From NCBI RefSeq assembly GCF_000026545.1, contig NC_011601.1: a stretch of 64,000 nt of DNA; one strand, written 5' to 3'. Position numbers: made by a program. Shown one piece after another: positions 18,001-24,000 of the stretch; the stretch's first letter is position 1, and the number at the start of each line of letters is the position of its first letter. The DNA is from Escherichia coli O127:H6 str. E2348/69. Lineage in GTDB: Bacteria; Pseudomonadota; Gammaproteobacteria; Enterobacterales; Enterobacteriaceae.

Positions 18001-21000
18001 CAAATCCCTGCCTTATTGCTAAACGGCCTTACCGTGGTTGTCTCACCGCTGATTTCGTTGATGAAAGATCAGGTAGATCAACTGCAAGCCAACGGCGTGG
18101 CGGCGGCGTGCCTTAACTCGACGCAAACCCGCGAGCAGCAGCTTGACGTGATGACAGGCTGTCGCACCGGGCAAATCAGCCTGCTTTATATCGCGCCGGA
18201 ACGCCTGATGCTGGATAACTTTCTTGAGCATCTGGCGCACTGGAATCCGGTGTTATTAGCCGTTGATGAAGCGCACTGTATCTCCCAATGGGGTCACGAT
18301 TTCCGCCCGGAATACGCTGCCCTCGGCCAGTTGCGTCAGCGTTTTCCGACGCTGCCGTTTATGGCGCTGACTGCCACAGCCGATGACACCACGCGCCAGG
18401 ATATCGTGCGCCTGCTGGGGCTGAACGATCCGCTGATTCAAATCAGCAGTTTTGACCGTCCGAATATTCGCTACATGCTGATGGAGAAATTCAAACCGCT
18501 CGATCAGTTGATGCGTTATGTACAGGAACAACGCGGTAAGTCGGGGATTATTTACTGTAATAGTCGTGCGAAAGTAGAAGACACCGCTGCGCGCCTGCAA
18601 AGCAAGGGAATTAGCGCGGCGGCCTATCATGCCGGGCTGGAAAATAATGTTCGCGCTGATGTGCAGGAAAAATTCCAGCGCGATGACCTGCAAATTGTGG
18701 TGGCGACGGTGGCGTTCGGCATGGGCATCAACAAGCCTAACGTTCGCTTCGTGGTGCATTTTGATATTCCGCGCAATATCGAATCCTATTATCAGGAAAC
18801 TGGACGCGCCGGGCGTGATGGCCTGCCCGCGGAAGCGATGCTGTTTTACGATCCGGCTGATATGGCGTGGCTGCGTCGTTGTCTGGAAGAGAAGCCGCAG
18901 GGGCAGTTGCAGGATATCGAACGTCATAAACTCAATGCGATGGGCGCGTTTGCCGAAGCGCAAACTTGTCGTCGTTTGGTATTGCTGAACTATTTTGGCG
19001 AAGGGCGTCAGGAGCCGTGCGGGAACTGCGATATCTGCCTCGATCCGCCGAAACAGTACGACGGTTCAACCGATGCGCAGATTGCCCTTTCCACCATTGG
19101 TCGTGTGAATCAGCGGTTTGGGATGGGTTATGTGGTGGAAGTGATTCGCGGTGCTAATAACCAGCGTATCCGCGACTATGGTCATGACAAACTGAAAGTC
19201 TATGGCATGGGCCGTGATAAAAGCCATGAACATTGGGTGAGCGTGATCCGCCAGCTGATTCACCTCGGCCTGGTGACGCAAAATATTGCCCAGCATTCTG
19301 CCCTACAACTGACAGAGGCTGCGCGTCCGGTGCTGCGCGGCGAATCCTCTTTGCAACTTGCCGTGCCGCGTATCGTGGCGCTCAAACCGAAAGCGATGCA
19401 GAAATCGTTCGGCGGCAACTATGATCGCAAACTGTTCGCCAAATTACGCAAACTGCGTAAATCGATTGCCGATGAAAGCAATGTCCCGCCGTACGTGGTG
19501 TTTAACGACGCAACCTTGATTGAGATGGCTGAACAGATGCCGATCACCGCCAGCGAAATGCTCAGCGTTAACGGCGTTGGGATGCGCAAGCTGGAACGCT
19601 TTGGCAAACCGTTTATGGCGCTGATTCGTGCGCATGTCGATGGTGACGACGAAGAGTAGTCAGCAGCATAAAAAAGTGCCAGGATGAAGACTCCGTAAAC
19701 GTTTCCCCCGCGAGTCTAATGTATGTTGATGTTATTCCTCACCGTCGCCATGGTGCACATTGTGGCGCTTATGAGCCCCGGTCCCGATTTCTTTTTTGTC
19801 TCTCAGACCGCTGTTAGTCGTTCCCGTAAAGAAGCGATGATGGGCGTGCTGGGCATTACCTGCGGCGTAATGGTTTGGGCTGGGATTGCGTTGCTTGGCC
19901 TACATTTGATTATCGAAAAAATGGCCTGGCTGCATACGCTGATTATGGTGGGCGGTGGCCTGTATCTCTGCTGGATGGGTTACCAGATGCTACGCGGTGC
20001 ACTGAAAAAAGAGGTTGTTTCTGCCCCTGCGCCACAAGTCGAACTGGCGAAAAGCGGGCGCAGTTTTCTTAAGGGCTTACTGACCAATCTCGCGAACCCT
20101 AAAGCGATTATCTACTTTGGTTCGGTGTTCTCGCTGTTTGTCGGTGATAATGTCGGCACCACCGAACGCTGGGGCATTTTCGCGTTGATTATTGTCGAAA
20201 CACTGGCGTGGTTTACCGTCGTTGCCAGCCTGTTTGCTCTGCCGCAAATGCGCCGTGGTTATCAACGTCTGGCGAAGTGGATTGATGGTTTTGCCGGGGC
20301 GTTATTTGCTGGATTTGGCATTCATTTGATTATTTCGCGTTAAGCACTTCCCCCTGATACGCTATCAGGGGGAATAACATCAGGATTGCAATTGATAAAG
20401 GTCTTCCTGAGAAAGCCCGGTCATTTCCATAATCAACTGCAAATCAAAGCCACGCTGTAGCATTGCTTTTGCGACATTGAGAAGGGCATCGCGCCGAAGT
20501 TCTTCCGCTAAAGTCATCAGTTCCTCTCCTTGTTGAGGCACTCGTTGTGCCAGACCATGTACTAATGTTCGTACATCCTGTGCTTCACCTACCAGCGCCA
20601 TGTAGTTTATCAACATGCGTATTTGCTGTCCGCTCATCTGCCCCAGAATCATTAAGCGGGATAACTTATCTAACAGCGTTGTCATATCCCGTTGACGGAT
20701 ATGCTTCTGTACCAGCGTAAAGGCGGCCATGCTGCGGTGTTGCATGATTTCGTCATCAGGAATTAGCGTAATATCAACCAGCGGAAAAGCATGGAAATAG
20801 AGATCGCGTGCAATGTCCGGATCCGGAAAACCATCGAGCCAGTTTGTTGACCATGGATATGGGCTACGCTTTCCCTGGTAAAAAAGAATGGGGATCACCA
20901 GAGGCAGATAATCATGTCCCGCTTCAAGATGCCGCTGCATGGTGGCAATAGCATAGCGAAGCATACGGAACGCCATATTTTCATCAGGTGAACTTTGATG

Positions 21001-24000
21001 CTCAATCAACACATAGATATATCCGCACCCTTTCGTCGTCTCTACTGAATAAAGTACGTCGTTGTAATACTGGCGCAGGTTTTCCTCTACAAAACTGCTG
21101 GACTCGAGATGGAGCGTATCAAGATTGCAGAGTTTAACTAAAGAAGGCGGCAGATGAATTTCAATAAAGTCACGGGCCGTTTCTGGTCGGGATAAAAAAG
21201 CCTTAAAGATTGCGTCATGTGGTGTCGTTGCTTCCGTCATTTTTCATCATCCGTGGGTGAAATATGGCGGCATTCTGGCACTAACAAAGAGAAGTAAATA
21301 GTAAATAAATTAACAGATTACGCTTATTACGAGATGCCTCGAGCGCGGATGTAACAATCTCTCGAGGCACATTAATTTACGTGAGCTTTATTCCAGTTTT
21401 AAGCATGCCTCGCCGATGCTAACAGCGCTCCCACCAGCATAAATAACGAGCCGAAAATCTTATTCAGCGCCTTCATCTGCTTTGGTCCTTTAATCCATAG
21501 AGCAATCCGTTGAGCAAGGGTGGCGTAACCGATCATCACAATAATATCGACCACAATAGTGGTGACGCCGAGCACGATATACTGCATCAGCTGCGGCTGT
21601 TGCGGCATGATGAATTGCGGAAATAGCGCCGCCAGAAACACAATACTTTTGGGATTGGTGAGATTCACAAAAACTGCGCGCTGGAACAAATGTCGGCGCG
21701 ATTGAGTAGAGGCCAGCGATTTAAGATCAATTGCGCCAGCGGCGCGCCATTGCTGTATTCCCAGCCAAATCAAGTAAGCTGCGCCTGCCCACTTCAACAC
21801 TTCAAACGCAATCACTGAGCGGGAAAATAGCGTCCCCAACCCCACGCCAACCAGCACAATATGAATCGCCAGTCCGGTCTGAAGCCCAGCAATAGACGCC
21901 ACCGCGCCGCGATAACCGTGGTTGAGCGAGGTGGTCATGGTGTTGATTGCGCCAGAGCCTGGCGACAGGCTTAAAATGATCGATGTCAGCAGGTAGGCAA
22001 ACCACCATTCTAAGGTCATGATGAACTCCCGGTGTGTCTATTTTTGTGCCACAATACGCTACTGTCGCAGCGTTGTGTCAGGCACGCTTAAAAAAACGAT
22101 TTTACGTGGTTTAAGAGGCAGATTACCCGATGTTTCAGCAGCAAAAAGACTGGGAAACAAGAGAAAACGCGTTTGCTGCTTTTACCATGGGACCGCTGAC
22201 TGATTTCTGGCGTCAGCGTGATGAAGCAGAGTTTACTGGTGTGGATGACATTCCGGTTCGCTTTGTCCGTTTTCGCGCACAGCACCATGACCGGGTGGTA
22301 GTCATCTGTCCGGGGCGTATTGAGAGCTACGTAAAATATGCGGAACTGGCCTACGACCTGTTCCATTCGGGGTTTGATGTTTTAATCATCGACCATCGCG
22401 GGCAGGGACGTTCCGGTCGCCTGTTAGCCGATCCACATCTCGGGCATGTTAATCGCTTTAATGATTATGTTGATGATCTGGCGGCATTCTGGCAACAGGA
22501 GGTTCAGCCCGGTCCGTGGCGTAAACGCTATATACTGGCACATTCGATGGGCGGTGCGATCTCCACATTATTTCTGCAACGCCATCCAGGTGTATGTGAC
22601 GCCATTGCGCTAACTGCGCCAATGTTTGGGATTGTGATTCGTATGCCGTCATTTATGGCACGGCAGATCCTTAACTGGGCCGAAGCGCATCCACGTTTCC
22701 GTGATGGCTATGCGATAGGCACCGGGCGCTGGCGCGCGTTGCCGTTTGCTATCAACGTACTGACCCACAGCAGACAGCGATATCGACGTAACTTACGTTT
22801 CTATGCTGATGACCCAACGATTCGCGTCGGTGGGCCGACCTACCATTGGGTACGCGAAAGTATTCTGGCTGGCGAACAGGTGTTAGCCGGTGCGGGTGAT
22901 GACGCCACTCCAACGCTTCTCTTACAAGCTGAAGAGGAACGCGTGGTGGATAACCGCATGCACGACCGTTTTTGTGAACTACGCACCGCTGCGGGCCATC
23001 CTGTCGAAGGAGGACGGCCGTTGGTAATTAAAGGTGCGTACCATGAGATCCTTTTTGAAAAGGACGCAATGCGCTCAGTCGCGCTCCACGCTATCGTTGA
23101 TTTTTTCAACAGGCATAACTCACCCAGCGGAAACCGCTCTACAGAGGTTTAAATTTCTTATGTACCAGGTTGTTGCGTCTGATTTAGATGGCACGTTACT
23201 TTCTCCCGACCATACGTTATCCCCTTACGCCAAAGAAACTCTGAAGCTGCTCACCGCGCGCGGCATCAACTTTGTGTTTGCGACCGGTCGTCACCACGTT
23301 GATGTGGGGCAAATTCGCGATAATCTGGAGATTAAGTCTTACATGATTACCTCCAATGGCGCGCGCGTTCACGATCTGGATGGCAACCTGATTTTTGCTC
23401 ATAACCTGGATCGCGACATTGCCAGTGACCTGTTTGGCGTGGTCAACGACAACCCGGAGATCATTACTAACGTTTATCGCGATGATGAATGGTTTATGAA
23501 TCGCCATCGCCCGGAAGAGATGCGCTTTTTCAAAGAAGCGGTGTTCAATTATGCGCTGTATGAGCCGGGATTGCTGGAGCCGGAAGGCGTCAGCAAAGTG
23601 TTCTTCACCTGCGATTCCCATGAAAAACTTCTGCCACTGGAGCAGGCGATTAACGCTCGCTGGGGCGATCGCGTCAATGTCAGTTTCTCTACCTTAACCT
23701 GCCTGGAAGTGATGGCGGGCGGCGTTTCAAAAGGCCATGCGCTGGAAGCGGTGGCGAAGAAACTGGGCTACAGCCTGCAAGATTGTATTGCCTTTGGCGA
23801 TGGAATGAACGATGCCGAAATGCTGTCGATGGCGGGGAAAGGCTGCATTATGGGCAGCGCGCATCAACGGCTGAAAGATCTGCATCCAGAGCTGGAAGTG
23901 ATTGGTACTAACGCCGAAGACGCAGTGCCGCATTATCTGCGTAAGCTCTATTTATCGTAATTGTTCTTTATTTGGTCAGTTGTCAACCTGATACTTCGCT

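Follow-up and report, generated by a model that had tools for sequence, protein, structure and literature searches.

The window analysed here, a 64,000-nucleotide stretch of DNA, matches Escherichia coli E2348/69 at 100% and raises a question of origin: is the gene that separates rhtC from rhtB in this strain, and that K-12 lacks, a recent insertion or one of two long-standing states of the same site? In the original prediction it was an insertion into a normally short spacer. The descriptive part of that prediction stands, since a 286 aa gene (here rpn) does lie between rhtC and rhtB and the K-12 spacer, put at about 60 bp, measures 61 bp in MG1655 and holds no gene. The evidence set out below leads us to a different reading of the arrangement, which we consider likely: rpn belongs to an Rpn orthologous group bound to this slot, likely a toxin-antitoxin/antiphage module, and its presence or absence is an old two-allele polymorphism spread by ordinary recombination. 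The features concerned are as follows.

19723-20343, plus strand: rhtC, the left flank, convergent with rpn; its stop codon adjoins the variable segment
20344-21398, no strand: variable cassette, 1055 bp from one stop codon to the other, in place of the 60-61 bp REP spacer
20348-20374, no strand: left hairpin, perfect 12-bp stem and 3-nt loop, inside the 36-nt gap between the rpn and rhtC stops
20380-21240, minus strand: rpn ORF (RpnL), 286 aa, WP_000133649.1, recognised by PF04754 profile match, conserved residues and predicted fold
20380-20517, minus strand: RpnS, predicted intragenic antitoxin of 45 aa with in-frame start at Met242
20523-20530, minus strand: Shine-Dalgarno-like AGGAGAGG, 5 nt upstream of the internal ATG
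20746-20760, minus strand: PDDEI motif, residues 161-165, invariant in the family (alignment; PMC5350276)
20965-21216, minus strand: predicted PD-(D/E)XK core (alignment; RpnA mutational data of PMC5350276)
21241-21281, minus strand: 41-nt block directly upstream of the rpn ATG, GTGCCAGAATGCCGCCA...CACGGATGATGAAAA, conserved across genera
21335-21369, no strand: right hairpin, 9-bp arms and 17-nt loop, 29 nt downstream of the rhtB stop
21399-22019, minus strand: rhtB, the right flank; its last codon and stop vary with the allele

Two alleles of the rhtC-rhtB slot

The cassette stands where K-12 and most E. coli have the REP spacer. The core of this empty-site spacer, which we take to match the REP consensus, has two further copies in the window (55761-55786 and 55852-55877), where zero are expected, and the K-12-type alternative allele is a REP/BIME element, that is an imperfect palindrome of ~35 bp, dispersed and intergenic. 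The end of rhtB reads GCT TAA beside the cassette, as against GCG TGA beside the REP spacer, and the rhtC protein of E2348/69 is 100% identical to that of empty-site B2 strains, the existence of which shows that B2 strains come with and without the gene. Complete E. coli genomes carry rpn in 645 of 5426 cases, one copy each, and lack it in ~88%; the carriers mostly have B2-type flanks, the B2-type left flank being present in 1024 genomes. Both states are also met in E. fergusonii-type backgrounds (~19 filled contigs vs 4 empty), where the empty contigs have the same REP spacer.

Beyond E. coli, the order rhtB, rpn, convergent rhtC was seen in all 11 of the contexts examined, from at least seven genera: Pseudocitrobacter, three Citrobacter, two Kluyvera, Klebsiella pneumoniae-type, K. 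aerogenes, Enterobacter, Pseudescherichia vulneris and E. fergusonii. The Rpn proteins encoded between rhtB and rhtC form their own clade, apart from RpnA-E. Within Citrobacter the dS of rpn is 0.47 vs 0.57-0.69 for its neighbours, and within Kluyvera 0.50 vs 0.35-0.50. Since orthologues occupy the slot everywhere examined and their dS tracks that of the neighbouring genes, the REP spacer is one of two old alleles, and the claim of insertion into a normally short spacer is not upheld: a gene that holds the same slot in many enteric bacteria and is simply missing in K-12 is a presence/absence allele rather than a fresh arrival. The difference from K-12 is thus an old polymorphism, through retention or ancient gain, and not a recent transposition.

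The contrary reading, that an Rpn 'transposase-like' gene was recently inserted into a K-12-type spacer, with the hairpins as its ends, and marks or causes local rearrangement, draws on the absence of the gene from K-12 and most complete E. coli genomes, on its GC content (46.6% vs 51-54% in the neighbours) and on a 7-bp direct repeat, TTAAGCA, at both ends of the cassette (20340-20346 and 21399-21405). However, low GC is common to the resident K-12 rpn genes, and the repeat, which other genera lack, overlaps the stop codon at either end. Nor does the distribution fit, the gene being single in each of the 645 genomes and never at another site, while the same-slot orthologues co-diverge with their flanks within genera. 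Gene order is unchanged, and since both order and flanks are alike in filled and empty strains, the suggestion that rpn marks or drives local rearrangement is not supported either. No precise-excision allele was present among the best-ranked junction matches. This reading is already largely refuted, and we hold it to be very improbable.

As to known mobile elements, the cassette resembles insertion sequences in being a single-gene unit that is variably present; it differs in having one copy at one site and no terminal inverted repeats, none being found at the cassette, nor any consistent or convincing target duplication. An insertion sequence or transposon was rejected on account of the missing inverted repeats and the single copy and site. 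The family itself is read in PMC10400941 as a toxin-antitoxin antiphage system, not as a transposase.

The evidence does not support the two hairpins as insertion boundaries, the role proposed for them originally: the variable segment runs from stop to stop, both lie inside it, and they are unrelated to each other. Both had been called strong. The left one is, and it folds at -19.9/-21.8 kcal/mol (z -4.4/-4.9; 0 of 200 shuffles fold as well), and a strong hairpin of different sequence lies at the equivalent place in 7 of 7 orthologous loci folded, a structural conservation across genera that also tells against a recent insertion end. It is probably a shared 3'-end or terminator-like element of the convergent rpn and rhtC. 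The right hairpin is also genuine, but it stands out less from shuffled sequence (z -2.4/-1.2, equalled by 6 and 25 of 200 shuffles), and it is confined to the Escherichia lineage, being retained in E. fergusonii while other genera have different hairpins there; it may be an rhtB 3'-end structure. The terminator scan called neither as a canonical Rho-independent terminator, the stems being present and the U-tract absent, and the preservation of the left structure across genera without a U-tract suggests a 3'-end function of another kind.

Exchange between lineages

The cassettes of E. coli and E. fergusonii are 99.0-99.4% identical, whereas their flanks are ~8% different, and this divergence starts within 9 nt of the cassette on the rhtB side and 7 nt on the rhtC side. 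In E. coli L115, which has non-B2 flanks, the donor tract ends <46 nt into rhtB and <106 nt into rhtC. The rpn tree also conflicts with the adjacent-gene tree (500/500 vs 500/500 bootstraps), the conflicting tree of rhtC coming from a gene only 37 nt away; the history of rpn is therefore more than simple vertical descent. In the explanation that we favour, the rpn cassette and REP spacer alleles, common to E. coli and E. fergusonii, would move between lineages through ordinary recombination within the conserved genes on either side.

A homing-like process would account for the same facts in another way. The REP-type empty allele would be broken, whether by the Rpn nuclease or by a host factor acting on REP, and repair from a filled allele would copy the cassette exactly stop to stop, an account under which the cassette could reach this slot repeatedly while the flanking DNA stayed behind. 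The near-identity of the cassettes with its abrupt borders, the short tract in L115 and the conflict between the rpn and rhtC trees all agree with this, and the same idea has been raised for rpnC at panD-panC (PMC5350276). Homing endonuclease genes likewise occupy one defined site as a presence/absence allele and show a cassette far more similar between species than its flanks, a resemblance of pattern only; the present locus differs from them in lacking any intron or intein context and in giving no sign of site-specific cleavage. RpnA, moreover, shows little or no sequence preference in cutting DNA (PMC5350276), and rpn genes have variable ends and show no evidence of autonomous mobility (PMC10400941). 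Large heterology blocks branch migration, so that ordinary recombination with later replacement of the flanks leaves the same junctions at the border of homology and heterology, and the last 100 nt of rhtC, being conserved in all lineages, blur the boundary on that side. The cassette-limited interspecies identity is accordingly compatible with homing but also otherwise explicable, and we think homing-like copying unlikely here. We would likewise give little credence to its extension, a slot-specific selfish/defence element whose polymorphism is maintained across species and which re-enters empty REP sites by break-induced, homing-like gene conversion, with the resulting junctions at the two stop codons. 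If true, such re-entry would be the long-missing 'primary' activity of Rpn nucleases about which Kingston et al. speculated.

A close parallel to this slot-bound group is rpnC (yadD) at panD-panC, likewise an Rpn gene that enteric bacteria keep in a single intergenic slot and with a tree at odds with its flanking core genes (PMC5350276). It is a different paralogue in a different slot, and what the rhtB-rhtC locus has in addition is a REP-bearing alternative allele common to E. coli and E. fergusonii and direct evidence that the two species recently exchanged DNA limited to the cassette.

A gene of the Rpn nuclease family with a predicted internal antitoxin

The product of rpn matches PF04754 with 275.5 bits (cut-off 21; E=3e-82) over model positions 1-201 of 203, and it exceeds the threshold of TIGR01784, the NCBIfam model of the Rpn subfamily (180.5 bits, cut-off 52.1). 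Alignment with RpnA, B, C and E places D9, D61, E80, Q82 and R92 at RpnA D11, D63, E82, Q84 and R94, all of them essential in RpnA (PMC5350276). These residues and the PDDEI motif are invariant in that alignment, the same columns are unchanged across 30 homologues, and the predicted core (alpha-beta-beta-beta-alpha-beta) finds its best fold matches among PD-(D/E)XK nucleases. Judged by its sequence, rpn belongs to the Rpn (PF04754/COG5464) family, is intact and has a predicted PD-(D/E)XK fold, as originally proposed. RpnE was inactive in the assays of PMC5350276 though it keeps the same motifs, and conserved residues are therefore no proof of activity. The RefSeq label of the gene is already "Rpn family"; the gene is also often annotated 'putative transposase'.

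Identity to the K-12 Rpn paralogues is 51-56%, and scores against NF007361 (RpnA) and NF007418 are 345.8 and 343.5, both vs a cut-off of 583. Orthology to K-12 RpnA, B, C, D or E was rejected on these sub-equivalog scores and the separate clade.

Within the gene, Met242 aligns with the RpnA iTIS Met244, and the GGAG(A) before this internal start is kept in 7 of 7 orthologues examined and in K-12 rpnA, B, C and E; rpn thus appears to have the internal start and ribosome-binding site of an RpnL/RpnS gene-within-gene. The C-terminal module that follows is homologous to RpnA-S and matches its three-helix bundle (PDB 7TH0). Its length in the orthologous group takes the values 45, 49, 53, 57, 61, 65, 69, 73, 81, 93 and 109 aa, every one of them 45+4k residues, through GxxE/GxxQ units of the four-residue repeat signature described for RpnS in PMC10400941. 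The E2348/69 form is the shortest, with zero repeats, and all 645 E. coli copies are of equal length, so that repeat number varies between genera and not within E. coli. Variation of this kind is regarded as a sign of phage-driven selection.

The analogy of RpnA, RpnB and RpnP2 makes it most likely that rpn is a toxin-antitoxin and antiphage module of the gene-within-gene type. Its full-length product would act as a Mg-dependent PD-(D/E)XK DNA endonuclease, which the 45-aa C-terminal protein started at Met242 would bind and restrain; neutralisation of the cognate RpnL by RpnS and protection against phage would be expected from homology. PADLOC has no defence model matching rpn, and no experiments on its product were found in the searchable literature.

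The short antitoxin module bears on a further alternative, that rpn is a relic in decay or without function, comparable to the 'inactive' RpnE and passively carried in some lineages. The lack of repeats, the invariant length within E. coli and the fact that most E. coli lost the gene or never had it could be read in this way. Against this, all 645 genomes have an intact ORF, and 34,024 blocks of the public assembly collection contain the exact protein; E2348/69 and an ST131-type strain have identical proteins, the DNA differences being synonymous; dN/dS is ~0.1; and the catalytic residues, internal start and ribosome-binding site are all kept. We regard decay as improbable, and rpn as selectively maintained.

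One close counterpart of the predicted module, K-12 RpnA (YhgA) with its toxin-antitoxin pair RpnA-L and RpnA-S (PMC5350276, PMC10400941; 7TH0), shares the Pfam family, essential residues, PDDEI motif, internal start at the equivalent Met with GGAG and three-helix C-terminal module, and both are single genes wedged between core genes. The two differ in clade and locus, are 52% identical overall and 55% in the N-terminal domain, and have an RpnS of 45 aa here vs 49 aa in RpnA, four residues being absent at the repeat site. The plasmid-borne RpnP2, which protects against T-even phages (PMC10400941), has the same family and gene-within-gene layout and is the basis for suggesting an antiphage role; the rhtB-rhtC gene, by contrast, is chromosomal, slot-bound and outside any defence island.

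The gene is in itself ordinary, the toxin-antitoxin and antiphage logic of the family having been published in 2023. The locus contributes a sixth Rpn orthologous group on the E. coli chromosome, lacking in K-12 and present in the EPEC prototype strain E2348/69 and in the pandemic ST131 lineage. It offers an unusually clean natural experiment, with one fixed slot, two alleles, two species and an antitoxin helix of 0 to 16 four-residue repeats, convenient for studying how repeat number tunes toxin-antitoxin pairing and for asking whether recombination in the flanks is the sole means by which Rpn genes spread or whether they also aid themselves.

Upstream of rpn, the promoter scan called no sigma-70 consensus promoter. 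The conserved 41-nt block probably combines an extended -10 (TGcCAGAAT, 21272-21280), a 5'UTR and the ribosome-binding site, and K-12 rpnA, B, D and E have a similar upstream architecture.

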